Shown here: piece after piece, positions 3,827 to 61,727 of the stretch
Layout of the letters: the number at the start of each line of letters is the position of its first letter
Position numbering within the stretch: the first letter of the stretch is position 1
NCBI GenBank assembly: GCA_030765235.1
Contig: JAVCCW010000030.1
Span: 8,144 to 72,143 of the forward strand
DNA: 64,000 nucleotides
Reading direction: 5' to 3'
Origin: Candidatus Gorgyraea atricola
GTDB taxonomy: Bacteria; Omnitrophota; Gorgyraeia; Gorgyraeales; Gorgyraeaceae
Notes under the pieces: model-generated
Told to the model about the DNA's origin: nothing
Seen by the model: only the letters and a program-made list of their open reading frames with translations
Databases searched by the model: none
Translations under genes and position numbers: made by a program

Positions 3827-3857
3827 CTTCCCTAAAACATTTTCTAGCCTCTTAAGC

Positions 3858-4907
3858 TTATCCAAACACTTTGTCGATCCAGCCGCCGCCAAGCACATAC
3901 TCACCGTCGTAAAATACTGCTGCCTGGCCCGGTGTAATCGCCTCCTGCTCCTGATTAAACTCCACTTCTAGATCCCCGTCCTTCGTCTCTTTCAAAGATG
4001 CCCTTGCTTTTTTATGAGAATATCTTATCTTGACCTCTGCCTCTTCGACCTTAGGCGAAAGCCAATTAACGCCCTTGACCATAAATCTCTTTTTCTTTAT
4101 CTCGGAGAAATCGCCCACCACTATCTCATTCTCTTCCGGCTTTATCTTTATAACATAAAGAGGGTTTTTGTGAGCTATGCCCAGACCTCTGCGTTGCCCT
4201 ATTGTGAAATTCCAAAATCCATTGTGAGAGCCCAGTATCTTGTTATTAGAATCGATTATGTCACCCTTCTCAGGCTCTTTTTTTATAAATTTAGCGTAAT
4301 CATTGTCCAGCACAAAACATATCTCCTGGCTATCTGCCTTTTCGTGAACTTTTAATCCTAGCTCTTTCGCCTTATTCCTCACGCTAAACTTGTCAAAGCC
4401 CCCTAAAGGCAGCAAGATCTTATCAATGCTGGGAAGAGAAAATAAAACGTAAGACTGATCCTTGGCTTTATCCGCAGATTCTTTTAATCTTAGCGCTCCA
4501 TTGCTTTCAATTCTTGCATAGTGGCCCGTGGAAATAAAATCGCATTCCAATTCTCCAGACTTTTTAAGCAGACTTCCAAATTTTATCTTTTCATTGCACA
4601 CGATACATGGATTAGGGGTCCGGCCCTTGAGGTATTCACTGATGAAATAATCAATGACCTCTTTTTTAAACACCTTTTCAAAATTTAATACATAATGCCT
4701 TATACCTAAAACATCACAGACCCTTTTTGCATCTTCTATGTCCTTAAGCGAGCAGCACGACTTATCCCTGTGTTTTCCGCAATACTCCTCTGGCCATATC
4801 TTCATGGTCGCGCCTATGACCTCGTAACCCTGCTCCTTTAATATAGCAGCAGCTACAGAACTATCCACACCCCCACTCATTGCAACCAGTACTCGCCTCT
4901 TATGCAT
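3858..4907 (-). CDS. mnmA: tRNA-specific 2-thiouridylase
   Basis: VLVAMSGGVDSSVAA PP-loop, 349-359 aa, conserved MnmA blocks. The track start at 4937 is a TTG inside a CCAATGACC repeat; ATG at 4905-4907 follows AAGGAG. Confidence 0.85.
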   Translation of the reverse strand: MHKRRVLVAMSGGVDSSVAAAILKEQGYEVIGATMKIWPEEYCGKHRDKSCCSLKDIEDAKRVCDVLGIRHYVLNFEKVFKKEVIDYFISEYLKGRTPNPCIVCNEKIKFGSLLKKSGELECDFISTGHYARIESNGALRLKESADKAKDQSYVLFSLPSIDKILLPLGGFDKFSVRNKAKELGLKVHEKADSQEICFVLDNDYAKFIKKEPEKGDIIDSNNKILGSHNGFWNFTIGQRRGLGIAHKNPLYVIKIKPEENEIVVGDFSEIKKKRFMVKGVNWLSPKVEEAEVKIRYSHKKARASLKETKDGDLEVEFNQEQEAITPGQAAVFYDGEYVLGGGWIDKVFG

Positions 4908-4916
4908 GCATCTCCT

Positions 4917-5036
4917 TACCAAATGACCAATGACCAATGACCAATGTCAAATAAATTTCCAATGCCCAATGACCAATTGGAAATTGGATAATTGGGAATT
5001 TATTGGGATTTGGTAATTGGGCATTTGTCATTGCGC
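4917..5036. repeat. CCAATGACC/CCAATTGG-rich imperfect palindrome between nfnB and mnmA
   Basis: Three direct CCAATGACC units, then ...CCAATGCCCAATGACCAATTGG AAATTGG...ATTGGGCATTTGTCATTG inverted arms. Confidence 0.6.
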
Positions 5037-6451
5037 CTTAGATAGTCATGTATCGCGCGGGCGGCGCGTTTGCCTGCGCCCATTGCTGCGATTACTGTGT
5101 CATCACCGTATGTGGCGTCGCCGCCAGCGTACACGCCTTTTAGATTCGTTGCTTGTGTCTCTGGATCCACAACTACCTTATTCCACTTATCGACTTTTAG
5201 TTCAGGTGTTGCTTTTAAAAATACTGGATTTGGGCTCTGGCCGACTGCCACTATAACTGTATCGACATCCATAGTAAACTCTGATCCCTCGATTGGGATC
5301 GGCCTTCTCCTGCCAGATGCGTCAGGCTCGCCCAGCTTCATCTTCACACACTCCATGCCTTTCACAAAATCCTTTTCATCCCCGAGTATTTTTTTAGGAA
5401 GCGTTAATATGTGCAGCTCGATCCCCTCTTCCTTCGCGTTCTCTACCTCTTCTCTTCGCGCAGGCATCTCTTTTTCTGAGCGCCTGTAAACTATATAGAC
5501 TTTTTCCGCGCCAAGCCTGAGAGAAACGCGGGCCGAGTCCATTGCAGTGTTGCCGCCGCCAATGACTGCCACACGTCTTCCTATATTTATAGGTGTGTCG
5601 TATTCTGGAAAAAGATACGCCTTCATTAGATTCGCCCTTGTTAAAAGCTCATTCGACGAGTAAACCCTGTTAAGATTCTCGCCTGGTATTTTCATGAAAC
5701 TCGGCAGTCCCGCGCCTGTACCAATAAAAACAGCCTTGTACCCCTCTTCGTACAGTTCCTTTAACGTCGAAACCTTCCCTACTATAAAATTCATCTTGAT
5801 CTCAACACCTAAAGACTTCAAATATTCTACTTCCTTTTTTACAATATCCTTGGGCAAGCGAAACTCAGGAATACCATAGACCAATACTCCTCCTGCAGTA
5901 TGCAATGCCTCAAATACAGTAACGCGATACCCAAGCCTTGCCAGATCCCCTGCGCAAGTAAGCCCAGCCGGCCCAGAACCAATGACTGCTACTTTAGCCC
6001 CACTCGTCCTTGTCCCTTGTCCCTTGTCACTTGCCTGCCCCGTACGAAATCTTTGATTTTCGTATGGGGTCCCTTCTTTAAGCTCCCAGTCTGCAGCAAA
6101 CCTCTCAAGCCCGCCTATATTTATAGGTGTCTTTTTCGCAGCCAGTACACACACGCCCTCGCATTGATCTTCCTGCGGGCAAACCCTGCCGCACACGCCA
6201 GGAAGATTATTTTTCTCTTTGATGATCTTAATGGCATCGTCGAATTTCTTATTTTTTATAGCTTCAATAAAACGCGGTATGTCTATTTCAACAGGGCACT
6301 TCGTCGAGCACCTGGGTTTTTTACAAAAAAGGCATCGGCTGGCTTCATTGACAGCCTCCTCCTGAGATAATCCAAACGCCACTTCATTGAAATTCTTGGT
6401 CCTATCTTTGGCGTTCTGCTTCTTCACTGTAATATCCCCCTTATCTTGCAC
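5000..6451 (-). CDS. nfnB: NfnB/GltD-like flavoprotein (glutamate synthase small-chain / SudA family), FAD/NAD(P) plus 2x[4Fe-4S]
   Basis: Cys cluster CLFCKKPRCSTKCP...CPQEDQCEGVC, dinucleotide fold KVAVIGSGPAG and a second GxGxxA. Lies downstream of a PyrK-like partner. Confidence 0.75.
   Translation of the reverse strand: MQDKGDITVKKQNAKDRTKNFNEVAFGLSQEEAVNEASRCLFCKKPRCSTKCPVEIDIPRFIEAIKNKKFDDAIKIIKEKNNLPGVCGRVCPQEDQCEGVCVLAAKKTPINIGGLERFAADWELKEGTPYENQRFRTGQASDKGQGTRTSGAKVAVIGSGPAGLTCAGDLARLGYRVTVFEALHTAGGVLVYGIPEFRLPKDIVKKEVEYLKSLGVEIKMNFIVGKVSTLKELYEEGYKAVFIGTGAGLPSFMKIPGENLNRVYSSNELLTRANLMKAYLFPEYDTPINIGRRVAVIGGGNTAMDSARVSLRLGAEKVYIVYRRSEKEMPARREEVENAKEEGIELHILTLPKKILGDEKDFVKGMECVKMKLGEPDASGRRRPIPIEGSEFTMDVDTVIVAVGQSPNPVFLKATPELKVDKWNKVVVDPETQATNLKGVYAGGDATYGDDTVIAAMGAGKRAARAIHDYLRRNDKCPITKSQ
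6004..6073. repeat. composite (CCCTTGT)n plus CCCCGTACGAAATCTTTGATTTTCGTATGGGG palindrome, in frame in nfnB
   Basis: Reads GTPYENQRFRTGQASDKGQGTRTSG immediately before the KVAVIGSGPAG FAD motif. Confidence 0.75.
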
Positions 6452-8901: not shown

Positions 8902-10859
8902 GATTTTTTGAGTTGTTTGATCCTGTCCCGCAATTCTGCTGCACGCTCAAACTGCAGGTTTCTCGCGCAGAGTTCCATTTCTCTCTGCATCTCACCGACC
9001 AGGCTATCGACCTCATATTCCTCTTCGCTCTGGCCAGTTACATCAACAACAGTGCCCTCTGCTTTTTTGGCGATCTCTATGCCATCTTTAACAGCCTTCT
9101 CTATTGACTTTGGTGTAATATTGTTCTTCTTATTAAATTCGAGCTGCTTCTCTCTCCGCCTCTCTGTTTCTTGCATGGCCCTTTCCATGGATTTCGTTAC
9201 TGTGTCCGCGTACATGATCACCTGGCCGTCGATATTTCGCGCAGCCCTGCCTGCTACCTGAATAAGCGCTGTCTGCGACCTTAGAAATCCCTCCTTATCA
9301 GCGTCTAAAATCGCGACCAATGACACCTCAGGAAGATCCAGGCCTTCGCGCAATAGATTTATGCCCACCAGGCAATCGAATTTCTGCTTTCTTAAATCGC
9401 GTAATATCTCAACGCGTTCAATCGTCTGTACCTCAGAATGCAGATACCTGACCTTTAATTTCGCATCCTTTAAATACGCTGTAAGATCCTCTGCCATCCT
9501 CTTGGTCAAAGTCGTGACCAGCACCCTCTGGCCTTTTTTGGCGCGGTCCCTTATATTTTGCGCAAGATCATCTATCTGGCCATCAGTGGATTTAAGTATG
9601 ATCTCTGGATCAATAAGTCCTGTCGGCCTTATCAATTGCTCGACGACCTGACTGGATTCCTTTAGCTCATACTCGGACGGTGTAGCTGAAACAAATATCT
9701 TTTCATTGATCACGCTGGTAAATTCCTCGAAATTTAGCGGCCGGTTATCCAGCGCGGACGGGAGTCTAAATCCATAATCAACAAGCGTTTTTTTACGCGC
9801 CTGGTCGCCATTGTACATGCCCCTTATTTGCGGCACTGAGACATGTGATTCATCAAGAATAGTCAGAAAATCATCTGGAAAATAATCTATAAGACAATAC
9901 GGCCTTGACCCAGGAGAACGGCCGCTCAGATGCCTTGAATAATTTTCTATGCCATTGCAAAAGCCCAGCTCCCACAACATCTCAATATCATACCGCGTCC
10001 TGGAATTAAGACGCTGCGCCTCGAGTAATTTATTCTGAGACTTTAATTCCTCGAGCCTTTCCGCTAATTCAACGCGTATCGAAGCAATGGCCTTCTCTAT
10101 CTTTTCCTGCGTCGTGACAAAATGCTTCGCAGGATAAATAGCTATTTTTTCCACCTCTCCTAAAACCTCTCCCGTCAATGGATCTATCTCTAATATCTTC
10201 TCTATTGTGTCGCCAAAAGAATCCACCCTGAACACTGTTTCCTTATACGCGGGGAATATCTCCACGATATCGCCCCTTACTCTGAAACATCCACGCGTAA
10301 AATCAATATCATTCCGCGAATAGCGTATATTTATAAGCTTTAAAAGAAGGGTGTCCCTTTTTATCTTCTGTCCCCTTTCTAAAAATAACAGAAGTTTCTG
10401 GTAATCTTCCGGAGAACCCAGGCCATATATGCACGAGACACTGGAAATAATGATCACATCCCGCCGCGACATAAGACTGCTCGTAGCTGAAAGCCTGAGC
10501 CTGTCGATATTATCATTGATTGAGGCATCCTTCTCTATATAGGTATCTGTGTGCGGGACATACGCCTCTGGCTGGTAATAATCATAGTAACTTACGAAAT
10601 ACTCGACTGCGTTATGCGGGAAAAATTCCTTGAACTCAGCATAGAGTTGCGCGGCAAGTGTCTTATTATGCGATATTACAAGCGTTGGCCTCTGCACATC
10701 AGCAATGACATTTGCCATTGTAAATGTCTTGCCGCTGCCAGTAACGCCAAGAAGGGCCTGAGACCGAACGCCTTTTTTTAGCCCCTGCGTGATCTTCTCA
10801 ATAGCCTGAGGCTGGTCCCCCTGCGGCTTAAACGAACTGACTAACTTAAATTTAGACAT
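8898..10859 (-). CDS. uvrB: excinuclease ABC subunit B
   Basis: [17 protein letters not shown], Walker [13 protein letters not shown], helicase motifs and C-terminal UVR domain. Confidence 0.95.
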
Positions 10860-11700
10860 TTATTTCCAAGGAGAAATCTACAGATGGAGCTGAGTGGGTA
10901 AGAGCGCCTATTGAAATCCTGTCAACACCTGTACGTGCAATCTTCGCAACATTTTCTAAATTAATGCCCCCAGATACTTCTAACATCACCCTTGTCCCTT
11001 GTCTCTTGTTACTTGTCCCTAACCTCGTTGCTTTTCTTATATCTTCTAACGTCATGTTATCCAGCATTATAATATCAGCGCCTGAGGCCAGGGCCTTTTT
11101 AAAATCTCCCAGATTATCAACCTCTACCTCGATATTCTTATAATGTTTATTCTTTGCCCTTGCCACAGCATCCTCGATGCTGCACAGAGACAGGTGATTA
11201 TCCTTGATCAAGACCTGGTCCCATAACCCCATCCTGTGATTAGAGCCGCCCCCCACTCTCACAGCATATTTTTCCAAGACCCTCATGCCAGGCATGGTCT
11301 TTCTCGTATCAAATATCTTCGCCTTTGTCTTTTTTATCTTTTCTACAAACTCGGCTGTAAGCGTACTGACACCTGAAAGCCTGCTAAGAAAATTCAATGC
11401 AGTCCTCTCGCACGTCAGGATATTCTTTACAGGCCCTTTTATAGAAGCGATCTTCTTTCCCTTTTTAATGGTAGCTCCGTCATTATAAATCGATCTAAAG
11501 ATTATCCTTTCGTCCAGCGCGGTAAACACCCACTTTGCAACATCTATGCCGCAGAGCACGCATTCCTCTTTCGCGACAATGTCAGCCAGAACGATCATGT
11601 CTTTCTCAAAAATCGCTCCAGAGGTGATATCGCCGCCTCCCACATCTTCACCTAAGGCAGCCATTATTATTGGTAGGATTTTTTCTCTTACAGGTTTCAT
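10852..11700 (-). CDS. nadC: nicotinate-nucleotide pyrophosphorylase (carboxylating)
   Basis: QPRTase C-terminal blocks [12 protein letters not shown]...[13 protein letters not shown]; contains a heptamer-repeat insert. Confidence 0.85.
10987..11019. repeat. (CCCTTGT)-like heptamer tract in frame in nadC
   Basis: CACCCTTGTCCCTTGTCTCTTGTTACTTGTCCC; reads TSNKRQGTR at a site where E. coli NadC, from memory, is shorter. Confidence 0.6.
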
Positions 11701-14405
11701 AATGCTTTCAGGGTCTCGCTCAACCTTTTTATCTGTTCTTTCAACTTTAGACTCTTTTCCTTCTCCTGGCTTACTATTTTTTCAGGCGCCTTTTTAACAA
11801 AATTCTTGTCCTTTAGTCTTTTTTCAGTAAATCCCAGCTGCCTGTCAAGTTCCTCTCTCTTCTTACCAAGTCTTTTCTTTTCCGCATCAAGGTCTATAAT
11901 ACCTTTTAGCGGCACAAAGATATTAAAATCCTCTAACACTGCCGTAGCGCAGCCTTCAGGTTTTTTCATGTCCTTATCTATCACCAGCTCCTCTAATCGA
12001 GCAAGATTCTTTATGTAGTCAATGCCTCCTTTTAATTTACCCTCCGCGCCTTTTTTTAAAGGCGCCAGGTACACTTTAAATCTTTTCGTATGCGGGATAT
12101 TCATGTCAGCGCGTATATTTCTTATGCTCACGATAATGTTTTTTATGATCTCGACACTGTGCTCGATATCCTTTTTAATCGCCTTTTTATCTACGCTCGG
12201 CCATTTCTCTGTAATTATACTTTCTCTTTCCTTTATATTCTGCCACACCGCCTCTGTCACAAACGGCATAAACGGATGCAGTAACTTCAAAGAGCTTTCA
12301 AGGATATGTATTAATACGCATTCCGTTACCCGTTGGCCCGTTGGCCCGTTGGCCCGTTGCATTAGTTGCGGCTTTATTATCTCGAGGTACCAATCGCAGA
12401 ACTCATGCCAGAAAAAATCGTAGACCAATGACTCTGCCTCATTGAACCTGTACTGCTCGAGAGACTTTGTTGCAGCCTCGATTGTCTTATTGAGCCGGCT
12501 AAGTATCCACTTATCCGCCAAGCTAAAAGCCGAGGCTGGACCTCGGCTTTTTGAAAAAAGCCGAGGTCCAGCCTCGGCTTTTTGAATGTTCATCAACACA
12601 AATCTCGACGCATTCCAGATCTTGTTGGCAAAGTTTCTGCCGATCTCAAATTTTTCTTTGGAGAGAAATACGTCTTGCCCTGTCGCTGTTATGGCTATCA
12701 TGCTGTATCTCAATGCATCTGTGCCAAATTCATTGATGATGTCTATAGGATCTATGATATTGCCGAGCGACTTTGACATCTTCTTGCCTGTAAGATCCCT
12801 GACTGTGCCATGCAGATAGACATCACTGAATGGGATCTCTCCTGTAAATTCCATACCTGCCATGATCATTCTTGCCACCCAGAAAAATAATATCTCTGGC
12901 GCGGTAACCAAAACATCTGTTGGATAAAAATATTTGAGATCTTCTGTCTTTTCTGGCCAGCCAAGCGTAGAAAACGGCCACAGCCACGACGAAAACCATG
13001 TATCCAGCACATCCTCGTCTTGTCGTATCTTAGTAGAGCTGCACTCTGGGCATCTCTCTGGGTTCACCTTTGAAACAATCACCTCTCCACAAGTTTCACA
13101 ATAATAGACTGGAATCCGGTGGCCCCACCAAATTTGACGAGATATGCACCAATCCCTGATATTCTCCATCCAATTCAAGTACACCTTTGTCCATCTCTTG
13201 GGATAGAACTTGATCTTGCCTTTTTTCACTGCGTCAATGGCTGGCTTTGCGAGCGGCTTCATCTTAACGAACCACTGCTTCGACAAATAAGGTTCCACAG
13301 CAGTGTGGCATCTATAGCAATGCCCTACAGCATGATGATGCGATTCTATCTTCACAAGCAATCCTTTTTCTTCTAATTCTTTTACAATACCTTCTCTTGC
13401 CTGGAATCTATCTTTGCCGTTGTATGAGCCTGCATTCTCATTCATTGTAGCGTCAGGATTCATTACAAGAACAGGTTCTAAGTCGTGCCTATTGCCTATC
13501 TCAAAGTCATTTGGATCATGCGCTGGCGTGACCTTAACCGCGCCTGTGCCGAATTTTTTATCCACAAAATCATCCGCGATAATTGGTATCTCGCGGCCGA
13601 TTATTGGAAGGGTCAATTTTTTACCAACGAGTTTTTTGTATCTTTTATCCTTTGGATTAACAGCTACAGCCACATCCCCCAACATAGTCTCCGGCCTCGT
13701 AGTAGCAACTGTAACCCCTTGTCCTTTGCCTGCCCCGTACGAAATCTTCGATTTTCGTATGGGGTCCCTTGTCCCTTGTCCCTCCGCAAGTAGATACTTG
13801 ATATAGTACAGCTTCCCCTCAGTCTCCACATGTGGAGCTTCCTCATCAGAGAGAGCGGTCTTGCACCTTGGACACCAATTGATAATATAGTTTCCTCTAT
13901 ATATAAGGCCTTTTTTATGAAGACTTACAAATGCCTCCAAGACTGCGTCGGAAAGTCCTTTATCCATTGTGAAACGCGTCCTTGCCCAGTCACACGAGGC
14001 GCCCAGCCTCTTCAGCTGCATGATAATAGTGTTTCCATACTCCTCGCGCCACTTCCATACCTCTTTTACGAATCCCTCGCGGCCCAGATCGTCCCGCTTC
14101 TTTCCCTCCTTAGCGAGTTTTTTCTCCACGACGTTTTGCGTAGCAATGCCAGCATGGTCAGTACCTGGTACCCACAAGCTCGCAAAACCCTGCATCCTCT
14201 TCCAGCGGATCAAGATATCCTGCAGAGTATTATTCAATGCATGGCCCATGTGCAAAATGCCTGTTACATTCGGCGGAGGAATGACTATGGTAAAGGGTTT
14301 TTTGCCAGATTCTGGCTTAGCGCTAAAAACCCCCTGCGCCTCCCATTTCGAATATATAGACTTTTCAACTTCTTGAGGATTATATCGGGCAGGAATCTCT
14401 TTCAT
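11697..14405 (-). CDS. valS: valyl-tRNA synthetase
   Basis: HMGHALN (HIGH), KMSKSLGN, VATTRPETMLGD and a C-terminal coiled coil; 902 aa with three in-frame repeat inserts. Confidence 0.95.
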   Translation of the reverse strand: MKEIPARYNPQEVEKSIYSKWEAQGVFSAKPESGKKPFTIVIPPPNVTGILHMGHALNNTLQDILIRWKRMQGFASLWVPGTDHAGIATQNVVEKKLAKEGKKRDDLGREGFVKEVWKWREEYGNTIIMQLKRLGASCDWARTRFTMDKGLSDAVLEAFVSLHKKGLIYRGNYIINWCPRCKTALSDEEAPHVETEGKLYYIKYLLAEGQGTRDPIRKSKISYGAGKGQGVTVATTRPETMLGDVAVAVNPKDKRYKKLVGKKLTLPIIGREIPIIADDFVDKKFGTGAVKVTPAHDPNDFEIGNRHDLEPVLVMNPDATMNENAGSYNGKDRFQAREGIVKELEEKGLLVKIESHHHAVGHCYRCHTAVEPYLSKQWFVKMKPLAKPAIDAVKKGKIKFYPKRWTKVYLNWMENIRDWCISRQIWWGHRIPVYYCETCGEVIVSKVNPERCPECSSTKIRQDEDVLDTWFSSWLWPFSTLGWPEKTEDLKYFYPTDVLVTAPEILFFWVARMIMAGMEFTGEIPFSDVYLHGTVRDLTGKKMSKSLGNIIDPIDIINEFGTDALRYSMIAITATGQDVFLSKEKFEIGRNFANKIWNASRFVLMNIQKAEAGPRLFSKSRGPASAFSLADKWILSRLNKTIEAATKSLEQYRFNEAESLVYDFFWHEFCDWYLEIIKPQLMQRANGPTGQRVTECVLIHILESSLKLLHPFMPFVTEAVWQNIKERESIITEKWPSVDKKAIKKDIEHSVEIIKNIIVSIRNIRADMNIPHTKRFKVYLAPLKKGAEGKLKGGIDYIKNLARLEELVIDKDMKKPEGCATAVLEDFNIFVPLKGIIDLDAEKKRLGKKREELDRQLGFTEKRLKDKNFVKKAPEKIVSQEKEKSLKLKEQIKRLSETLKAL
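12324..12360. repeat. (CCCGTTGG)n octamer tract in frame in valS
   Basis: CCGTTACCCGTTGGCCCGTTGGCCCGTTGGCCCGTTGC; reads ANGPTGQRVTE. Confidence 0.65.
12527..12590. repeat. two tandem terminator-like hairpins (AGCCGAGGCTGGACCTCGGCT family) in frame inside valS
   Basis: AAAAGCCGAGGCTGGACCTCGGCTTTTTGAAAAAAGCCGAGGTCCAGCCTCGGCTTTTTGAA; reads as KAEAGPRLFSKSRGPASAF within the intact valS ORF. Confidence 0.75.
13717..13784. repeat. same composite palindromic element, in frame in valS
   Basis: CCCTTGTCCTTTGCCTGCCCCGTACGAAATCTTCGATTTTCGTATGGGGTCCCTTGTCCCTTGTCCC; reads EGQGTRDPIRKSKISYGAGKGQGV just before VATTRPETM. Confidence 0.75.
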
Positions 14406-14436: not shown

Positions 14437-14474
14437 GCTTCTGTAGGCCAGGTTTAAACCTGGCCTACAGAAGC
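14437..14474. repeat. GCCAGGTTTAAACCTGGC-core palindromic hairpin (copy 1), between cimA and valS
   Basis: GCTTCTGTAGGCCAGGTTTAAACCTGGCCTACAGAAGC perfect palindrome. Confidence 0.7.
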
Positions 14475-30739: not shown

Positions 30740-30776
30740 AAAAAAAGCCGAGGTCCAGCCTCGGCTTTTTTAGTCC
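30740..30776. terminator. AGCCGAGGTCCAGCCTCGGCT hairpin flanked by A/T runs, between trpF and the HDAC gene
   Basis: AAAAAAAGCCGAGGTCCAGCCTCGGCTTTTTT; same family as 12527-12590 and 61684-61727. Confidence 0.6.
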
Positions 30777-32214: not shown

Positions 32215-32264
32215 AGCCTGGCTTCCGTAGGCCAGGTTTAAACCTGGCCTACGGAAGCCAGGCT
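32215..32264. repeat. GCCAGGTTTAAACCTGGC-core palindromic hairpin (copy 2), between trpD and trpC
   Basis: AGCCTGGCTTCCGTAGGCCAGGTTTAAACCTGGCCTACGGAAGCCAGGCT. Confidence 0.7.
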
Positions 32265-33854: not shown

Positions 33855-33960
33855 GATACCTCTCGCATTAAAATCCCAAATCCCAATAAATACCAATACT
33901 ACCAAATAAATCCCAATTTCCAAATCCCAAACATGGTTTTGGATTTGGGATTTTGGATTT
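33855..33960. repeat. CCCAAT-rich palindrome between trpE and trpG
   Basis: AAATCCCAAATCCCAATAAATACCAATACTACCAAATAAATCCCAATTTCCAAATCCCAAACATGGTTTTGGATTTGGGATTTTGGATTT; related to 4917-5036. Confidence 0.6.
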
Positions 33961-35389
33961 ATTCAAGTCCTTCCTCTGCTATTTCAATAGCCTTGACCAT
34001 GGCCTTTGCCTTATTGACTGTCTCCTGATATTCTCTCGATGGCACTGAATCAGCTACTATGCCAGCGCCTGCCTGTATAAACGCGTCTTTTCCTTTTACG
34101 AGTATAGTCCTTATGTTAATGCAGGTGTCCATGTTGCCGTTAAAACTAAAATAACCTACTGCGCCTGCGTAAGGTCCGCGCCTCGAGTTTTCCAGCTCAT
34201 CTATTATCTCCATCGCGCGTATCTTTGGCGCGCCAGCCACAGTACCTGCAGGAAAAGCGGCCCTTAAAACATCGTACGCATTCTTGCCTCTGGCAAGCTT
34301 GCCTACGCAATTGCTTACTATGTGCATGACATGCGAATATTTTTCTACAAACATAAACTCTGACACCTTTACGCTGCCAGCCTTACACACCCTGCCTATA
34401 TCATTTCTGCCAAGATCAACAAGCATGACGTGTTCGGCCCTTTCCTTTGCATCCTGTAAAAGCTCCTTCTCGAGACGCGCGTCATCCTCTGCATCTTTTC
34501 CTCTCGGCCTTGTCCCGGCAATAGGACGCGTCTCAACAATCCCGTTCTCGCATCTTACAAGGACTTCGGGCGAAGCGCCTATCATCTTTACGTCGCCAAA
34601 ATTTAAATAGTACATATATGAGGAGGGATTCAGGGATCTTAGCTCACGATATACATCCAGTGGATCACAATTCAGGGTAGTGCGAAAACGCTGCGAAAGC
34701 ACTACCTGTATAATATCGCCAGCCTTGATATATTTTTTAGCCTTCCGCACAGCGTTCTCAAACCCCTTTTTTGTAAAATTTGATTTGATCTTGTGAGGGG
34801 TTTTTGTCTTTCTCTCCTTTTTTTCTTTTAGTGGTCTATTTAATTTTTTTATAATCTTGTCTATTTTCTTTACCACGCTATCATAACTCCCTTGTCCCTT
34901 GTCCCTTGTCCCTTGTCCCTCAGGATAAGCATTCACCACCACTTTAATCTTATGCGTTGAATGGTCAAAGATTATATGACTATCTGCCATCATAAAGATA
35001 GCGCCTGGGACATTTAGATCATCTGGATTTTCATCTGGCAGATCTTCGAAAAACCTAACTGTGTCATATCCCATATAACCTACGAGTCCCCCTGAAAATC
35101 TTGGCAGGCCCATTACTTTAGCCGGCTTAAAAACGCTCATGATCTTCGCGATCTCTTTTAAGGGCGAATCTGAGGTCTTAAAAATAATTGACGGCTCTAT
35201 GCCAATAAAAGAAAACCTCGCTATCTTCTCCTCACCTTCAACAGACTCCAGGAGATACGAATAATCGCCTTTCATCTTTACAAAGGCAGACACTGGCGTA
35301 AGTAAATCCGCGAGTATCTCGCGATATACCGGTATTACATTCGCTTTCTTTGCCAGTTTTACGAATTCTTTTTTTGACGGATAATACAT
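33959..35389 (-). CDS. trpE: anthranilate synthase component I
   Basis: Chorismate-binding C-terminus (GAVGYFSFNGNMDTCINIRT); contains a GQGTRDKGQG heptamer-repeat insert. Confidence 0.9.
   Translation of the reverse strand: MYYPSKKEFVKLAKKANVIPVYREILADLLTPVSAFVKMKGDYSYLLESVEGEEKIARFSFIGIEPSIIFKTSDSPLKEIAKIMSVFKPAKVMGLPRFSGGLVGYMGYDTVRFFEDLPDENPDDLNVPGAIFMMADSHIIFDHSTHKIKVVVNAYPEGQGTRDKGQGSYDSVVKKIDKIIKKLNRPLKEKKERKTKTPHKIKSNFTKKGFENAVRKAKKYIKAGDIIQVVLSQRFRTTLNCDPLDVYRELRSLNPSSYMYYLNFGDVKMIGASPEVLVRCENGIVETRPIAGTRPRGKDAEDDARLEKELLQDAKERAEHVMLVDLGRNDIGRVCKAGSVKVSEFMFVEKYSHVMHIVSNCVGKLARGKNAYDVLRAAFPAGTVAGAPKIRAMEIIDELENSRRGPYAGAVGYFSFNGNMDTCINIRTILVKGKDAFIQAGAGIVADSVPSREYQETVNKAKAMVKAIEIAEEGLE
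34889..34921. repeat. (CCCTTGT)x4 heptamer tract in frame in trpE
   Basis: CCCTTGTCCCTTGTCCCTTGTCCCTTGTCCC; reads GQGTRDKGQG. Confidence 0.7.
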
Positions 35390-35390
35390 C

Positions 35391-35705
35391 CTACGCCTTC
35401 CTATAGAAACAGCTTCTGTTTCCAGTGTGGCATGCCACGCCTTTTTGTCTTACCTTTATAAGGAGGGTGTCCATGTCACAGTCATAATAAACGCCTTTTA
35501 CGAATTGAAAATTCCCTGAAGTCTCGCCCTTTACCCAGTATTTCTTTCTGGAACGTGACCAGTAACAAGTCTTGCCTGAAGTAAGCGTCCTTTTTACTGA
35601 CGCCTTATTCATGTACGCCAGCATCAAGACCTCGCGGGTCTTATAGTCCTGCACTATCGCCGGTATCAGTCCATTTTTATCAAACTTCAAATCTTTGATC
35701 TTCAT
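35391..35705 (-). CDS. hisI: phosphoribosyl-AMP cyclohydrolase
   Basis: 104 aa, GLIPAIVQD...[16 protein letters not shown]...DCDMDTLL. Confidence 0.8.
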
Positions 35706-36478
35706 GTCCGCACTCCTACGCCTTTCTCTTTCAAATATTCTTTTGTGTCTTTTATTGAATATTCTCTAAAATGAAAAATAGATGCGGCAAGCGCCGCGTC
35801 TGCCTTGCCATCTGTCAAAACCTCATGTAAATGCTGGAGGCCTCCTGCGCCGCCAGACGCTATAATTGGGATGTTTAAATTCTCAGAGAATGCCTTTGTC
35901 AATTCGATATCGTACCCGTCTTTAGTGCCGTCCTTGTCCATGCTTGTAAGAAGGATCTCACCCGCGCCAAGCTTTTCTACTTTTTTGCCCCACTCTAAAG
36001 CATCTATGCCTGTTGGCGTGCGACCTCCATTAATATATACTTCCCAGCTTGCTCCTTGTCCCTTGTCACTTGTTGCTTGTCGCTTTGCGTCAATGGCCAC
36101 CACAATACACTGACTCCCAAACCTCTCCGAAGCCTTCTTGACAAGTTCAGGGTCTTTTACTGCAGCTGTATTGATCGAGACCTTATCTGTACCTGCATTC
36201 AATAACTCCCTGATATCATCGAGATTTCTTATGCCACCTCCGACTGTCAGCGGCATAAAAACCGTCTCTGCTGTGTGCCTCACCACATCCAGCATGATCT
36301 GCCTCTTCTCGTGGCTCGCTGTAATGTCCAAAAACACGATCTCGTCTGCCTCTTCCTTGTCGTAAAACTGAGCGACCTCTACAGGATCACCTGCATCCTT
36401 CAGGTTCAAAAACTTAACGCCCTTTACGACCCTGCCATCCTTAACGTCTAAACATGGAATAATTCTCTTGGTTAGCAT
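35702..36478 (-). CDS. hisF: imidazole glycerol phosphate synthase cyclase subunit
   Basis: [16 protein letters not shown] and IIASGGAG blocks. Confidence 0.9.
36052..36085. repeat. degenerate heptamer tract in frame in hisF
   Basis: GCTCCTTGTCCCTTGTCACTTGTTGCTTGTCGC; reads [10 protein letters not shown]. Confidence 0.55.
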
Positions 36479-37191
36479 ATTTTAATAGCTTCCTCAAGGT
36501 CGACCTTGCCCTCATACAGGGCTCGGCCAACAATAACTCCCTCTAAATTCTTGCTTCCAATATCCTTTAGCCTCTTGATGTCCTCCAGGTTCGAGACACC
36601 GCCAGATGCAATCACTGAGATATCTACGGAATTCAAAATCTTTTTCAATCTCTCTATATTAGGCCCTTTTAATGTCCCATCCACTGTAATATCAGTTACA
36701 ACAATTGTCTTTACGCCTATATTCTTGATCTTTTTAAGCATTGCCTCAGGCGTTAAGTCTGTAGCCTCGGTCCATCCCTTTTTTGCTATTTTTTCTCCTG
36801 AAAAATCAATACCAAGCACTATTCTTTGGTTGAATCTGGAGATCATGTCCTTTAAAAACTCAAGATCTTCAAAGGCCCTTGTGCCGATTACTACACGGCT
36901 AGCGCCCTGTTTTAAAAAATATTCTACATCTTTATCGCTGCGCAGCCCTCCTCCGACTTCACATGACATGTTTACGCTTTTTATAATACTGGTTATGATA
37001 TCCCTATTCCTGATCTCACCGTATTTTGCGCCATCCAGATCCACTATGTGCAAAAAAGAAGCGCCCTTATTCTGCCACTTGAGCGCCATCTTCACCGGAT
37101 CCTCTGAATAGAGCTTCTCCTTATTGAAATCGCCCTGATATAACCTAACAACCTTTCCGCCAATTATATCTATTGCAGGAATAACTATCAT
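36472..37191 (-). CDS. hisA: ProFAR isomerase
   Basis: [17 protein letters not shown] and VIASGGVS blocks. Confidence 0.85.
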
Positions 37192-37862
37192 AGCTTTACA
37201 AAATTCTCCACGATCTTTAATCCAACGCCCTGGCTCTTCTCAGGATGAAACTGAAATGCGTATATATTATCTTTTTGAATACCAGAGGTAAATTTCACAC
37301 CATAATCTGTCTCACAAAGAACCATACTCCTATCCTCAGGCTCCACATAATAAGAATGCACAAAATACATAAAACTCCCATCAGCCACGCCATCTAGAGC
37401 CCTTGTCCCGCCTGTCCCGAGCGAAGTCGAGGGATGTCCCTTGCCTGCCCCGTACGAAATCTCTGATTTTCGTATGGGGTCCCTTGTCCCTATCTGATTC
37501 CAGCCCATATGCGGAATTTTTAAGCCGCTTCCAGCATTAAACCTCTTGACCTTACCCTTTAAAACATCAAGCCCCTTGATCCTACCGCCTTCTTCGCTCT
37601 CTGAAAATAAAAGCTGCAGGCCCAGACATATACCCAAGAAAGGTTTTCCTTTTTTTATTGTTTCCAGTATAGCCTTGATCAAACCCCTTTTTCGCAGTTC
37701 TTCCATTGCATTGCTAAATGCGCCCACGCCCGGCAGGATGATCTTATCAGCTGCAAGAATATCGCGGCTAGACGAAGTCACCTTGACATCAGGACAAAAG
37801 AGCTCTACTGCCTTTTGCACGCTCCTAAGATTTCCCATGCCATAATCAATAACAACAATCAC
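37188..37862 (-). CDS. hisH: imidazole glycerol phosphate synthase glutaminase subunit
   Basis: MIVVIDYGMGN, GICLGLQLL, FQFHPEKS; carries a ~30-aa palindromic-element insert. Confidence 0.85.
   Translation of the reverse strand: MIVVIDYGMGNLRSVQKAVELFCPDVKVTSSSRDILAADKIILPGVGAFSNAMEELRKRGLIKAILETIKKGKPFLGICLGLQLLFSESEEGGRIKGLDVLKGKVKRFNAGSGLKIPHMGWNQIGTRDPIRKSEISYGAGKGHPSTSLGTGGTRALDGVADGSFMYFVHSYYVEPEDRSMVLCETDYGVKFTSGIQKDNIYAFQFHPEKSQGVGLKIVENFVKL
37400..37490. repeat. composite element with an extra CGCCTGTCCCGAGCGAAGTCGAGGGATGTCCC module, in frame in hisH
   Basis: Reads GTRDPIRKSEISYGAGKGHPSTSLGTGGTRALDG between conserved HisH blocks. Confidence 0.75.
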
Positions 37863-38506: not shown

Positions 38507-38560
38507 AAAGCTCCTTCTCTGTAGGCCAGGTTTAAACCTGGCCTACAGAGAAGGAGCTTT
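38507..38560. repeat. GCCAGGTTTAAACCTGGC-core palindromic hairpin (copy 3), between proA and hisB
   Basis: AAAGCTCCTTCTCTGTAGGCCAGGTTTAAACCTGGCCTACAGAGAAGGAGCTTT. Confidence 0.7.
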
Positions 38561-41815: not shown

Positions 41816-41841
41816 CTTACTCCTCCTTGATTTCGACGCTT

Positions 41842-41918
41842 GTGTAATGTTTAATGTTTAATGTGTAATGAACTAAGCTACCCTACCTACATTACACTTT
41901 ACACCTTACACATTACAC
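41842..41918. repeat. imperfect inverted repeat in the rplU-rpmA intergenic region
   Basis: GTGTAATGTTTAATGTTTAATGTGTAATG ... CATTACACTTTACACCTTACACATTACAC. Confidence 0.5.
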
Positions 41919-41924
41919 AAATCT

Positions 41925-45473: not shown

Positions 45474-45806
45474 TTAGTCGGTGACTAGCTCTACCCTTAC
45501 CTCGTCACCTTCTACTTCAAAGACCACAGCGCCTTTTTCTATTTTTAAAACCTTTACAATGCCTATTTTCTGACCTTCCTCAGCGATCTCTCCGTTTATA
45601 ATAGCGATGGAACCATTTGCCTCATCCCAGACTATTCCTTCCAATCTGATATCCTTTATGCTGGTTATCCCGTATGCGTCAGAGACATACATGCCGTCTT
45701 TTGAAATAAGCGGAATAAACGGATCCCTCTTAGCCTTAATATCATACTTAAACCCTGATATCAACAATATAGCAATGAAACAAAAAATGATGTATGTTTT
45801 TTTCAT
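45474..45806 (-). CDS. pilP: PilP-like pilus assembly lipoprotein
   Basis: Small signal-peptide protein placed between pilO and pilQ; assigned by position. Confidence 0.45.
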   Translation of the reverse strand: MKKTYIIFCFIAILLISGFKYDIKAKRDPFIPLISKDGMYVSDAYGITSIKDIRLEGIVWDEANGSIAIINGEIAEEGQKIGIVKVLKIEKGAVVFEVEGDEVRVELVTD

Positions 45807-46360
45807 AGTGTCTTTGTAATATATGTACTGACCCTTAACCTTATGTCATGACGCCTGGGATCTTCAGACCTACCCTTTATGTCCACATCGTCTATCCTTA
45901 TGAACGTAGTCATGCTTTCAAGATTGTTCACAAATACGCCGCACTGATGATAACCTCCTCTTGCCTCTATCAAAATCGGGAACTCAGAATAAAGCCCGCC
46001 TGCCTGAGAAATATTGTCCAGCGTCTCAAGGGGCTTGATCCTGAGTATCTTTACGCCCGAAGACTCCGCTACGCTGGAAAAATCCTCGAGCAGGACAGCT
46101 ATCTCATCATGGCCAGCCAGCTGCTGCTCGGAAAGCCTCACCTGCTTGCTTAACTCATCATGTTGTTTTTTTATCCTGGCCTCATTTGTAATCAAATTCT
46201 CAGAGTTTCTTACTCTGACCCTTACTGCGCAGTACTCCCTGTTATTCGCGATAAAACTTCTAAACTGCGGTTTCAGTAGAAGATTAAAATAAATCACAAG
46301 CGCTGCAATTCCAAAAATCCCAAAAAGTATATATAGTTTTTGTTTTTCTTTAAGCTCCAT
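45803..46360 (-). CDS. pilO: type IV pilus assembly protein PilO
   Basis: Single N-terminal TM plus coiled-coil, position after pilN. Confidence 0.55.
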   Translation of the reverse strand: MELKEKQKLYILFGIFGIAALVIYFNLLLKPQFRSFIANNREYCAVRVRVRNSENLITNEARIKKQHDELSKQVRLSEQQLAGHDEIAVLLEDFSSVAESSGVKILRIKPLETLDNISQAGGLYSEFPILIEARGGYHQCGVFVNNLESMTTFIRIDDVDIKGRSEDPRRHDIRLRVSTYITKTL

Positions 46361-46374
46361 ATTAACTCGCCCTG

Positions 46375-46953
46375 TTATTTAAGATACAACACGATCCTGA
46401 AATCCACTATGTCCCTCTCATCTATGCTTTTTCTCTGCACAGATTCGAGCTTGATGTTACTGAAATCTTTAAAGAATGTCTTATTATCGCGTACATTTTT
46501 CATGAACTTGCCTACTGTTGCCATAGCCTCTTCCTGCTTAGGTATCACACTGCCCTCTACTACCAGCTTATCTTCTGAATCTGTCCGGATCCTCGTAAAC
46601 CAGATCCCCGGCAGAATCAGATCAGAAAGATAGTTCAGCTTCTCTGCCCATAAAAATCTGCGGCTGGTGACCCCATCCATCATGTTCATCTTTGCCTTTA
46701 GGGTGACTATCTCTTTATTGATCGTCTCTATGTCTAATGTCTCTGCTGCAAAATTTTGCTCCTTAAGAAGCAGCCTCTGCGTCTGCTTCTTTCTGACGAA
46801 AGAGCCCACCAGACAAAACAGAACGAGTATTATTAATATGCCTGCAGCTGCAGCGCCTCCTATGACCTTGACTTTTTCCATCTCAAGGTCCAGCTTAAAC
46901 TGCGGCTGCCTTTTCTTACGCATCTCCTCCGGCAATAAATTTATCTCTATCAT
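46375..46953 (-). CDS. pilN: type IV pilus assembly protein PilN
   Basis: MIEINLLPEE start typical of PilN, single TM, ~190 aa. Confidence 0.6.
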   Translation of the reverse strand: MIEINLLPEEMRKKRQPQFKLDLEMEKVKVIGGAAAAGILIILVLFCLVGSFVRKKQTQRLLLKEQNFAAETLDIETINKEIVTLKAKMNMMDGVTSRRFLWAEKLNYLSDLILPGIWFTRIRTDSEDKLVVEGSVIPKQEEAMATVGKFMKNVRDNKTFFKDFSNIKLESVQRKSIDERDIVDFRIVLYLK

Positions 46954-46954
46954 A

Positions 46955-47926
46955 TCACTGCCTCAGCGCCAGGCCGATTGCTACTGCAAATAAGGCCGGC
47001 GATCCTTCTGGCTCGCTAACAGGACCCGCTAATGAAACAGCCTCAAACGGATCCCACATCACTACAGGTAAGCCTAAATTATCTTTAAGAAAATCCAGCA
47101 TATTAAAGAGATACGAAGTCCCGCCGCTTATGTAGACCTTTTCAACGCCCCTGCCGAACTGACTTTCAAAATAATCAAAAGACATCCGCATCTGCGACGA
47201 GAGCCTTTCAAGCACAGGATTAATAACGCTTATCACTTCTTCCCTTTTCTCAGCAGGGTTCTTCTTTAATGCCTCCGCGTCTTCCAGGCTGAGCGCCATT
47301 GCATCCCTGATCCTTTTTGTAATATCTGCGCCGCCCCACAATATATCCCTTGTAAAATATACATTTCCCTTTGTTACGATATTCATATTGGAAAAACGCT
47401 CACCCATATTGATAAGACCGTATGCCGCGTCTTCCTTTTTCTCTGCCGCTGCATGGAAACAATTTAAAAATGCAAAACTGTCTACGTCTATAGTGCCTAT
47501 CTCGAGTCCAAAATTTTTAAAAAGCTCTATCAGTCTATCCACTTCCGGCTTCTTTGCCGCGACCAGCAAAACCCTTTGACTCCCGGAACTCGTCTTGTCA
47601 AGCACCGCACAATCTATTATGGACTGATCTATGTCAAATGGTATATACTTCCCTGCCTCGAACTTTATTGCGCTTTCTATCTCTTCTTTTTTCATGGGCG
47701 GCATCTCGATGTAGCGCACTATCACTGACGGGCCTGCGAGTGAGACATTTACACGCTTCAAAGACAGCTTTGCCTGGCCCAGCAGTGTCTTGAGCGCTGA
47801 GGCTGGATTTCCATCAGCTACAGACGTGATGAGACACTTGGAGACTACAGGCTTGCCTTTTTTATGCTCCAGCTCCACTAACTTTACATTATATTGCCCG
47901 AGATCTATTCCAATGACTTTTTTCAC
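46955..47926 (-). CDS. pilM: type IV pilus assembly ATPase-like protein PilM
   Basis: Actin-like ATPase fold, VIGIDLGQYNVKLV start, 323 aa. Confidence 0.8.
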   Translation of the reverse strand: MKKVIGIDLGQYNVKLVELEHKKGKPVVSKCLITSVADGNPASALKTLLGQAKLSLKRVNVSLAGPSVIVRYIEMPPMKKEEIESAIKFEAGKYIPFDIDQSIIDCAVLDKTSSGSQRVLLVAAKKPEVDRLIELFKNFGLEIGTIDVDSFAFLNCFHAAAEKKEDAAYGLINMGERFSNMNIVTKGNVYFTRDILWGGADITKRIRDAMALSLEDAEALKKNPAEKREEVISVINPVLERLSSQMRMSFDYFESQFGRGVEKVYISGGTSYLFNMLDFLKDNLGLPVVMWDPFEAVSLAGPVSEPEGSPALFAVAIGLALRQ

Positions 47927-47973
47927 TCTATAGCTCCTATATATAAAAAATATTTAATATATACTTACCACAT

Positions 47974-48417
47974 TTATTGCACTACTGGATCATTTACGCT
48001 TGCCGGACCATTAGGATTTGCTTTTATTATGCTGGACTCATCAGAAAAAAAGTATCTCGTGCCTGTTTTTCCAGCAGAAACAGGATTGGCATTCAATGTA
48101 AAGGTCTCGCTGTCAACAAGGGCATAATTAAACGTATAGCCCTGCTTTGTGCCACTGGCAAGTATAGTATCAATGTATGGCGGAATAGAAATCGGCGGAA
48201 CAAGATCCAACATGCTAGATGGATAGGCATGCGGGTAAGAACTCGCGTAAAAGTTCTGTGCCGCAGTAACAACGGTCCTGCATGAAGCCACTGCAGCCAT
48301 CTCATTCGCATTATGCCTGGCGCGCAATACGCTAGAAATAGCCAAGGTCGCAAGCGTCATAACCACTGCGACAACTATCATTATTTCAACTAGGGTAAAC
48401 CCCTGACGCCCTTTCAT
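47974..48417 (-). CDS. type IV pilin / pseudopilin (prepilin cleavage-methylation domain)
   Basis: MKGRQG|FTLVEIMIVVAVV class III signal with Glu+5. Confidence 0.75.
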   Translation of the reverse strand: MKGRQGFTLVEIMIVVAVVMTLATLAISSVLRARHNANEMAAVASCRTVVTAAQNFYASSYPHAYPSSMLDLVPPISIPPYIDTILASGTKQGYTFNYALVDSETFTLNANPVSAGKTGTRYFFSDESSIIKANPNGPASVNDPVVQ

Positions 48418-48462
48418 TTATAACAAATCTATACTAATATAGACAAAAAGTCAATAAAAAAA

Positions 48463-48548
48463 AGTGCCACGTACTAATTTTCCATCGTACGTGGCACTAT
48501 AACAAAACAGAAAAAGTAGACCAGGTTTAAACCTGGTCTACTTTTTTA
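48463..48548 (-). terminator. tandem hairpins downstream of the major pilin gene
   Basis: AAAAAGTAGACCAGGTTTAAACCTGGTCTACTTTTTT (48511-48548) and GTGCCACGTAC-N12-GTACGTGGCAC (48463-48498), both with T-runs in the minus sense. Confidence 0.6.
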
Positions 48549-48559
48549 TTCCTTACTAA

Positions 48560-52475: not shown

Positions 52476-52524
52476 CCCCGCAACCCCGGAGGTTGCCAGC
52501 ACGGCAACCTCCGGGGTTGCGGGG
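52476..52524 (-). terminator. GC-rich hairpin downstream of pilC
   Basis: CCCCGCAACCCCGGAGGTTGCC-AGCAC-GGCAACCTCCGGGGTTGCGGGG perfect inverted repeat. Confidence 0.5.
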
Positions 52525-55371: not shown

Positions 55372-55379
55372 ATTTCGTT

Positions 55380-57095: not shown

Positions 57096-57097
57096 AG

Positions 57098-61683: not shown

Positions 61684-61727
61684 AAAAGCCGAGGCTGGAC
61701 CTCGGCTTTTCCGAGGTCCAGCCTCTA
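61684..61727. repeat. paired AGCCGAGGCTGGACCTCGGCT-family hairpins between rodA and the TIGR03960 radical SAM gene
   Basis: AAAAGCCGAGGCTGGACCTCGGCTTTTCCGAGGTCCAGCCTC. Confidence 0.6.

Follow-up and report, generated by a model that had tools for sequence, protein, structure and literature searches.

The valine-tRNA ligase gene valS (11697-14405, minus strand, 902 aa) of Candidatus Gorgyraea atricola, a member of the Omnitrophota, carries three in-frame inserts of repetitive DNA, and was studied within a stretch of 64,000 nucleotides of contig JAVCCW010000030.1, referred to here as the window. These inserts are probably passengers that stem from genome-wide families of small repeats in this Omnitrophota clade, and not regulators of valS. 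One of them, a pair of hairpins (site B, 12525-12582), would be an element of the type formed by repetitive extragenic palindromes (REPs) and their inverted doublets (REPINs), built from a 28-nt near-palindrome that is shaped like a bidirectional intrinsic terminator and occurs singly or as an inverted doublet. The other two (site A, 13715-13784, and site C, 12324-12360, both on the minus strand) are tandem arrays of 7-8-nt units, in one of which a 36-nt hairpin core would have landed at a fixed point. Coordinates are those of the window, and no strand is assigned to palindromic elements.

Judged from its sequence, the host gene is clearly functional and under strong purifying selection. Its product has the full ValRS domain set in Pfam (tRNA-synt_1, 6e-145; Anticodon_1; Val_tRNA-synt_C), its nearest relatives are valine-tRNA ligases of Candidatus Omnitrophota with 91% and 87% identity, and in the comparison with the closest orthologue, on contig L001 (dS = 0.58), the ratio of nonsynonymous to synonymous substitution rates (dN/dS) is 0.06 outside the inserts and 0.70 within them. 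The first-pass annotation of this DNA had reported a 902-aa open reading frame (ORF) uninterrupted by three inserts, and both points hold: the frame is intact, and the octamer array, the hairpin pair and the composite element are each far above chance expectation in a window of 43% G+C. An Rfam search over the whole window returned just a tRNA, and no leader, riboswitch or known RNA family covering the repeat elements.

Site B consists of two units, 12525-12552 and 12555-12582 (AAAAGCCGAGG-CTGGA-CCTCGGCTTTT), occupies codons 607-627 of valS and is translated as QKAEAGPRLFSKSRGPASAFS. Its arms of 28 nt are complementary at 28/28 positions across a 2-nt gap, and each unit is itself palindromic except for a 5-nt loop, which reads CTGGA in one unit and TCCAG in its partner. 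Single units have a terminator shape, with a 7-bp GC stem extended by A-U pairs, the 5-nt loop and a U6 tail in the valS sense (TTTTTT after unit 1, TTTTAGCTT after unit 2), and in a consensus scan they were the top-ranked terminator-like sites in 5-20 kb. The pair of textbook terminators proposed earlier is therefore borne out as regards the shape and T-run of each unit, but together the two form one perfect palindrome, whose minimum free energy fold in the valS sense is a single 27-bp hairpin (-56.5 kcal/mol, z = -10.5, against -20.6 and -18.8 for the units alone). The unit recurs in the window at 30742-30769 (0 mismatches) and 61684-61711 (1 mismatch), making four matches where 0.00 are expected. 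The former copy, a single unit, fills the 36-nt gap from the stop of a PRAI (trpF-like) gene at 30770 to the start of a deacetylase-like gene at 30733; the latter belongs to a doublet with a truncated second unit (61684-61725; 15-bp hairpin, -38.4 kcal/mol), which abuts the stop of a RodA/FtsW-like gene and fills the 48-nt gap to a radical-SAM gene. An unrelated hairpin stands in the orthologous gap of contig L152. Both window copies adjoin the upstream stop and end 9-10 nt short of the next start, between co-directional genes. They do match the valS pair, as had been noted, but they are intercistronic elements and not operon ends, and efficient termination would fit poorly with gaps as short as these (36 and 48 nt) between co-directional genes.

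The doublet is present at the same place in L001, where the palindrome is still perfect and the loops are CCGAA/TTCGG. Only 4/58 nt differ between the two doublets, against about 40% expected at synonymous sites (P = 9e-9), and the four changes form two complementary pairs, placed as mirror images so that the palindrome stays perfect, a symmetry with a chance probability of about 7e-5. This degree of conservation, together with the lineage-specific array units and the reuse of loops described below, suggests selection on the structure, correction against an active master copy or targeted re-insertion.

At site C, the octamer tract recognized by the first-pass annotation is an array of CAACGGGC in the valS sense, with 3.9 units and a degenerate unit, translated as QRANGPTGQRVT; the octamer CCCGTTGG is repeated 3.9 times at 12329-12359 with 100% matches (six 16-mer matches against 0.03 expected), and 12329-12355 is a canonical G-quadruplex motif on the valS sense strand. 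The composite of heptamers and palindrome described for site A is equally recognizable: a 36-nt hairpin core (13728-13763, minus strand; CCCATACGAAAATCGAAGATTTCGTACGGGGCAGGC in the sense direction), as read from the sequence, is nested in an array of ACAAGGG heptamers (13764-13784 and 13715-13727), where it follows a GGGAC, and the whole element encodes EGQGTRDPIRKSKISYGAGKGQG. The composite at 13720-13776 has copies at 6025-6081 (86%) and 37435-37491 (95%), and CCCTTGT heptamers reach 13 matches in the window against 0.04 expected.

Seven-nucleotide arrays and their cores sit in frame in several other genes of the window, all on the minus strand. Arrays with cores are found in a gltD-like gene (6007-6081 in 5000-6451; heptamers and a 36-nt core, from a five-way alignment), in a hisH-like glutamine amidotransferase gene (37400-37491 in 37188-37862; two dissimilar hairpin cores, both preceded by the GGGAC of a heptamer array) and in the radical-SAM gene (61111-61161 in 60093-61676; heptamers and a 44-nt core of a second type, identical to 37400-37443). 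An ACAAGGG-type array lies in nadC (10989-11020 in 10852-11700), 4.7 units of ACAAGGG with a G-quadruplex motif on the sense strand in trpE (34888-34920 in 33959-35389), and a degenerate ACAAGGG array in hisF (36053-36085 in 35702-36478). The presence of such elements in an essential gene, previously called unexpected, loses its singularity in this company, and the more so since in relatives repeats also occur in uvrA, leuS, dxs, queA, pfkB and the gene of a transposase that is described below. In 227 kb we counted 44 tandem arrays of period 7-8, typically with 4.4-4.7 units, 26 of them within ORFs. All ACAAGGG arrays are in the sense orientation, which gives the hydrophilic peptide TRDKGQG where the antisense would give PLSLVPC; their G-rich strand is always the minus strand, shared with most ORFs (about 56/62 in a greedy map of window positions 1-64000), so that transcription and replication orientation are inseparable within the window. 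Six of the eight cores (36-nt and 26-27-nt) sit after GGGAC and the cores end in CAGGC(A/G), with variable hairpins, and the comparison of empty and filled orthologous arrays in nadC and gltD gives an exact 36-nt indel. Repeat arrays also produce five G-quadruplex motifs (G3 N1-7, four runs) in the window against 0.37 expected, among them 12329-12355 on the valS sense strand, 34896-34919 on the trpE sense strand, 62831-62857 (minus) and 62873-62899 (plus).

The hairpin unit is likewise dispersed. The window holds 4.5 units of the site B family, and a related metagenome-assembled genome (MAG) and four JGI samples provided 51 further units at about 27 distinct sites, sharing a core of 19-27 nt and A/T tracts (consensus aaAAAGCCGAGGCTGGACCTCGGCTTTttt) and having an invariant 5-nt loop; in a metagenome scan the unit was found on 25 further contigs. 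When the loop was left free in a scan of 185,579 species genomes, the terminator-like pattern was listed at at least 120 loci of unrelated bacteria, once per locus and with local context left aside, and the shape of the unit as such appears generic; among the matches listed, CAZWYD01 is the only MAG with the true loop, at four loci. Doublets are inverted at 17/17 distinct sites and direct at none (P = 8e-6 under random orientation), with the units in either order and spacers of 0 to 12 nt. About nine of the approximately 27 sites lie inside Pfam-confirmed ORFs, a location at odds with the extragenic position of REPs, the genes being valS, uvrA, leuS, dxs (in an inter-domain linker), queA, pfkB, a DUF362 ferredoxin and a GH94 enzyme, and the non-genic sites immediately follow a stop codon or occupy a narrow gap between cistrons. 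Every one of the five single units inside genes reads as KSRGPASAF, one of six possible readings (P about 8e-4). Hairpin cores are identical across genomes whose genes are 85-91% identical, and a MAG and JGI contigs share insertions at orthologous sites of uvrA, leuS, dxs and glyQS. Divergence of elements and flanks in pairs ascertained by the pattern was discarded as biased, and the comparison of valS between the window and L001 alone was used. One orthologous intergenic site has a single unit in L126 (about 230-280) and an inverted doublet in L138 (about 1745-1825), differing by some 30 nt, and is a candidate singlet/doublet polymorphism.

A possible agent of this dispersal is encoded in related genomes. 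A motif screen of the Omnitrophota ORFs in the contigs examined gave one transposase candidate, at the start of L141, whose stop codon falls within a hairpin unit. The same gene, identical and complete, is present on L151 (3685-4317, 210 aa); it passed the Pfam threshold for Y1_Tnp (25.5 against 23), and its sole NCBIfam match was REP_Tyr_transpos (NF047646), at 20-40 bits where the cut-off is 80; a doublet lies upstream of it, a unit directly after its stop codon and another unit within the ORF (3841-3875). Its orthologue on L152, a contig of the same MAG as L003, stands in the gene order TPR - Y1_Tnp - sigma70 - anti-sigma - SpoVG ... murA - mreB - mreC - PBP2 - rodA - radical SAM, and L152 17342-20705 aligns to window positions 64000-60664 at 83-86%, from which the transposase gene of the window genome itself would be expected, by synteny, about 7-8 kb past the window end. 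At the same internal position (10160-10208), the L152 transposase ORF has the doublet GCGGAGG-CGAAA-CCTCCGC / GCGGAGG-TTTCG-CCTCCGC, a diverged family in which the stem change relative to the window family is compensatory. The transposase gene hosts, in other words, its own in-frame unit (L151) or doublet (L152) at one position in two lineages. A PDB sequence search with the transposase found no match. On L151, a perfect palindrome with 24-bp arms (ATCGAAAAGTAGACAAAACAGTCA / TGACTGTTTTGTCTACTTTTCGAT) also occurs at 2211-2259, directly after the first gene of the contig.

In the protein, all three inserts fall in surface-loop-like positions between conserved blocks, as the first-pass annotation had proposed from the sequence. 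Alignment with the Thermus ValRS (1GAX) gives an 18-aa gap at site A (between residues 208 and 209, where the editing domain is entered), 10 extra residues at site B directly ahead of the anticodon-binding domain, and a difference of just 1-2 additional aa at site C. An AlphaFold model of ValS made from 31 sequences has a mean predicted local distance difference test score (pLDDT) of 62.9, too poor for fold work, and only its well-modelled C-terminal half was used; there, the only residues predicted with pLDDT below 50 are 610-624 (site B) and 685-687 (site C, between helices 654-682 and 687-709), and residues 210-227 of site A are likewise below 50. Across the 31 Omnitrophota ValS sequences the three sites span 9-28, 14-29 and 14-40 residues, and ValS of the window exceeds the shortest orthologues by 19, 8 and 8 aa. 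Alignment of the orthologues indicates lineage-specific segments in length-hypervariable loops, with sequence and length of each site differing even between proteins that are 87-91% identical. The ValS of other Omnitrophota range from 872 to 969 aa, and some (P0009, P0011, P0022, P0039 and P0052) have repeat-like peptides, for example TQRTEDRGQRTEG and ARGQKTEDRGQRKGKNL, in two additional loops where the window has none; one follows the first CxxC pair in the zinc-binding region, the other WPE (alignment columns 443-478 and 523-545).

What fills these loops was read from a DNA alignment of five syntenic lineages, namely the window, L001, L003, L149 and L150, and relatives carry different repeats at the same sites. 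Site A holds a GGGACAA array with the 36-nt core in the window, a GGGACAA array with a different core in L001, a GGCTCAA array in L003, a GGGTGAA array with a third core in L149 and a GGGTGAA array in L150. Site B is occupied by the hairpin doublet in the window and in L001 (with the altered loops), by an octamer array in L003, by an unrelated palindrome with a 28-bp stem in L149 and by a different inverted doublet in L150, and in many orthologues it is unstructured. At site C, CAACGGGC in the window is replaced by four ACAAGGG units in L001, ATAGCGG-like units in L003 and CAACGAGC in L149, and the site is empty and 27 nt shorter in L150. The same valS loops are, then, occupied by unrelated elements in different lineages, and dispersed arrays at orthologous sites have one common unit within a genome and other units in other genomes. 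In valS, nadC and gltD, every large internal indel examined proved to be a repeat element, and repeat-derived indels in the 16-kb syntenic block are confined to these three genes; in the seven other genes of the block, such indels were sought and none was found, coaX having three unrelated 15-28-nt blocks.

As to how the inserts arose, the hairpin unit would most likely have been mobilised as single-stranded DNA by a domesticated Y1 (IS200-type) transposase related to the REP-associated tyrosine transposases (RAYTs), with one gene per genome. Y1 transposases of the IS200/IS605 type insert 3' of a fixed pentanucleotide without target duplication, and the landing of the 36-nt core 3' of GGGAC resembles such an insertion, with its short target and no duplication. 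Copies that fall within genes would be retained if they are a multiple of three bases, have a stop-free frame, encode a small or hydrophilic peptide and lie in a permissive surface loop, and this survivorship filter would account for the sense orientation of the G-rich arrays and for the single preferred reading frame of the unit. Inside valS, termination is probably suppressed, as translating ribosomes would keep the RNA hairpin melted; between genes, a unit located right after a stop codon may terminate transcription leakily, stabilise the 3' end or be cut by RNase III.

Several observations weigh against this passenger interpretation. The transposase gene is known from related genomes and is placed in the window's own genome by synteny alone, and its score of 20-40 bits against the curated RAYT cut-off of 80 makes it a distant relative at best. 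The GCCGAGG unit has no GTAG or CGTC tag, the consensus of 51 units having only A/T tracts beyond the stem, and the spacing of the doublets is variable (0-12 nt), whereas REPINs typically keep it fixed. For the hairpin unit, neither a transposition intermediate nor a target-site rule nor an empty site came to light, and any link of the 7-8-nt arrays and their cores to a transposase is one that we purely infer. Shielding by ribosomes presupposes that transcription and translation are coupled in Omnitrophota. Finally, the valS doublet is conserved far beyond neutral sites with all its changes symmetric, which a model of passive passengers leaves unexplained.

That last observation is the main argument for a different view, in which the nucleic-acid structures themselves are selected inside valS, as an RNase III or decay site tuning the mRNA or as hairpin or G-quadruplex DNA signals, the inserts having been co-opted. 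The near-identity and symmetry of the doublets in the window and L001 are joined by the compensatory stem change in the L152 family, by the unrelated long hairpins that stand at site B in L149 and L150, and by the canonical quadruplex motif of the octamer tract on the sense strand. The same conservation is expected, however, from copy correction or replacement by an active REPIN population, or from a transposase that needs the structure; the same units occur in many unrelated genes and intergenic gaps, site B of L003 is a plain octamer array, and many orthologues lack a structure there, so that we regard this view as unlikely. It is quite improbable that the hairpins function as rho-independent terminators or attenuators and thereby hold down valS transcription. 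Their shape is that of the textbook, and the occurrence of the pattern with a free loop, once per locus, at at least 120 loci of unrelated bacteria is suggestive of ordinary terminators, but identical units lie inside at least eight other housekeeping ORFs, those in operon gaps of 36-48 nt leave no space for a new promoter before the next start, Rfam gives no leader or riboswitch, and the insert has persisted through a dS of 0.58 in a gene under strong purifying selection. In Escherichia coli, terminators within or abutting translated regions are repressed by the ribosome, almost fully when the terminator is within a few bp of the translated gene (PMC4824070), and by analogy terminator function inside valS seems unlikely.

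An adaptive role of the inserts as protein features, that is, ValRS loops selected for partner binding or tRNA contacts, would agree with their predicted surface positions at the editing-domain junction and in the anticodon-binding helical region, and class I synthetases do gain idiosyncratic insertions. Nevertheless, the peptides are translations of DNA repeats that are also present in unrelated genes and between genes, dN/dS reaches 0.70 within the inserts, and the sites vary in sequence and length even among close orthologues, all of which makes such a role very improbable. No more credit can be given to a DNA-uptake-type signal spread by biased uptake and recombination, in the manner of the DNA uptake sequences (DUS) of Neisseria or the uptake signal sequences (USS) of Haemophilus. 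These likewise form terminator-like inverted pairs, prefer certain frames in ORFs and stay identical across species, as do the hairpin cores among genomes with 85-91% gene identity, and the unit has a preferred reading frame and the window contains type IV pilus genes. The half-site GCCGAGG, on the other hand, occurs almost only in complete units (8/9 occurrences in the window), a count on which the uptake hypothesis was rejected; the 5-nt loop invariant in 51 units indicates that the whole hairpin is the copied entity, and members of the family lie at the flanks of a Y1 transposase gene. Assemblers can be led astray by short palindromes and tandem repeats, but an assembly or chimera artefact has next to no probability, given that the ORF stays in frame, that two independent ENA assemblies (L001 and L002) have the doublet at an identical valS codon, and that the insertions in uvrA, leuS, dxs and glyQS recur at orthologous positions in MAG and JGI contigs.

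Going beyond the passenger interpretation, which we prefer, one may speculate that in this clade the surface-loop codons of housekeeping genes are a managed landing zone, with the 7-8-nt arrays as multi-copy targets (GGGAC^) for Y1-type hairpin modules and with the same loops repeatedly re-colonised or overwritten, arrays and REPINs changing together by lineage. Examples of such co-change are GGGACAA versus GGCTCAA versus GGGTGAA in the arrays, and CTGGA versus CCGAA versus CGAAA in the loops, with compensatory stem changes. This idea is tentative and rather doubtful; if true, translated repeats would evolve in concert across the genome or be corrected from a template, and selection at the nucleotide level would operate within coding sequence, independent of the encoded peptide.

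Among known systems, the closest analogue is that of REP/REPIN elements with a RAYT-like transposase, and not the Rickettsia palindromic elements (RPEs) to which the inserts had been likened. The REPIN/RAYT pattern is defined by short palindromes that also pair as inverted doublets and by a syntenic Y1 transposase gene, present in one copy, with repeats at its flanks (Bertels and Rainey 2011, PMC3116915), and intragenic REPs, often dimers encoding 20-30 aa, have been published for uvrA and tRNA synthetase genes, being most numerous in the PVC bacterium Opitutus terrae (Di Nocera 2013, PMC3733652). The Omnitrophota elements share with them the short imperfect palindrome (28 nt, within the usual 20-40 nt) in many dispersed copies, mostly just downstream of genes between co-directional ORFs, the doublets that are always inverted and fold into a larger hairpin, in related genomes a candidate cognate Y1 gene, single-copy and syntenic, with repeats at its flanks, the lineage-specific sequence variants and the intragenic copies, often dimers of about 20 aa, in uvrA and tRNA synthetase genes. 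They differ in that the GCCGAGG unit has no recognised GTAG/CGTC tag (a second palindrome family has GTAG...CTAC), in the A/T tracts that give the unit a perfect bidirectional terminator shape, in the doublet spacing of 0-12 nt, in that about one third of the sampled sites are intragenic with a single preferred frame, and in a transposase only distantly related to the curated RAYT model. We found no description of such elements for Omnitrophota in the literature searched. REP elements with RAYT transposases were reportedly also described by Nunvar in 2010.

RPEs also are palindromic selfish repeats, found in frame in unrelated housekeeping genes at fold-compatible positions (Ogata 2000, summarised in PMC10969869), as the Omnitrophota elements are. 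They measure about 100-150 bp and encode 30-50 aa (PMC10969869), however, against a hairpin of 28-58 nt and a 36-nt core here, belong to a different lineage with no sequence similarity seen, are not terminator-shaped and have no known dedicated transposase. SPRITE elements are similar as a dispersed family with an intrinsic-terminator-like unit, clustered with and inserted into other small repeats, but they are longer, essentially intergenic and without doublet or REPIN organisation, and no in-frame coding copies have been reported. The tandem arrays recall the short tandemly repeated repetitive (STRR) heptamer arrays of cyanobacteria with nested small dispersed repeats (SDRs), reportedly described by Mazel in 1990 and Elhai in 2008. 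Shared traits are dispersed 7-nt arrays with a preference for about four units, G-runs capable of quadruplexes and hairpin modules of 21-36 nt nested at precise points in arrays and in one another; unlike STRRs, 26/44 of the arrays described here are in ORFs, in sense and translated, the unit at orthologous sites changes with the lineage, and the host belongs to the Omnitrophota and not to the Nostocales. To our knowledge, ACAAGGG and CAACGGGC are not among the published STRR units. G-rich heptamer repeats, which share the quadruplex-capable runs, are documented in Xanthomonas and Nostoc (PMC4692102). With ordinary intrinsic terminators, the unit has in common the GC-rich stem, the 5-nt loop and the U-tract on the transcribed strand; it differs from them in its location in translated ORFs or between a stop and the next start, and not at the 3' end of a transcription unit, and in being multi-copy, invariant in its loop and paired as palindromes.

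Other repeats accompany these families in the window. Between the stop of a cimA-like gene and the start of valS lies a 38-nt perfect palindrome with GTAG...CTAC ends (14437-14474, GCTTCTGTAGGCCAGGTTTAAACCTGGCCTACAGAAGC; -34.8 kcal/mol, z = -6.9). It belongs to a second palindrome family (GTAGGCCAGGTTTAAACCTGGCCTAC), with copies at 14437-14474, 32221-32258, 38515-38552 and 48510-48547 and perfect stems of up to 27 bp, each about 10-30 nt past the stop codon of a minus-strand gene, and by its sequence this family looks like a GTAG-tagged REP family. One copy stands between the two N-methyl pilin genes of a type IV pilus or pseudopilus cluster (45474-49006 and 53740-58636), which also includes PilO and an MshEN-domain protein. 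Inverted pairs of tandem arrays, with hairpin arms of 7-8-nt repeats, occupy the intergenic positions 62808-62907, 4922-5027, 33871-33960 and 41841-41919, for instance (CGTTTGCC)5.5 facing (AAACGGGC)4.9, and the orthologous gap in L152 also has arrays in inverted orientation, made of heptamers quite unlike these. A perfect 22-bp inverted repeat (CCCCGCAACCCCGGAGGTTGCC / GGCAACCTCCGGGGTTGCGGGG), unrelated to the other families, is located at 52476-52524 in the gap from a 1062-aa ORF to the next gene.

That selfish palindromes are tolerated in protein loops is already known from RPEs and intragenic REPs, and for this reason an essential gene transcribed through terminator-shaped hairpins mostly loses its surprise. 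Less familiar are the 7-8-nt arrays, apparently landing pads on which hairpin cores settle in coding loops, the reuse of loops by unrelated elements and the strong nucleotide conservation of the doublet; landing pads, loop reuse and a conserved translated palindrome hint at a mechanism of copy correction or targeting that is not yet described. The persistence of terminator-shaped hairpins in at least nine housekeeping genes makes the idea of ribosome shielding directly testable. In practice, proteins of this clade are lengthened by the repeats, which will interfere with alignment, gene calling and binning. For the Omnitrophota, an uncultured phylum related to the PVC bacteria, the elements described here extend biology of the REPIN/RAYT type, and they offer a natural experiment that can show which peptides and reading frames of repeats are acceptable to proteins.

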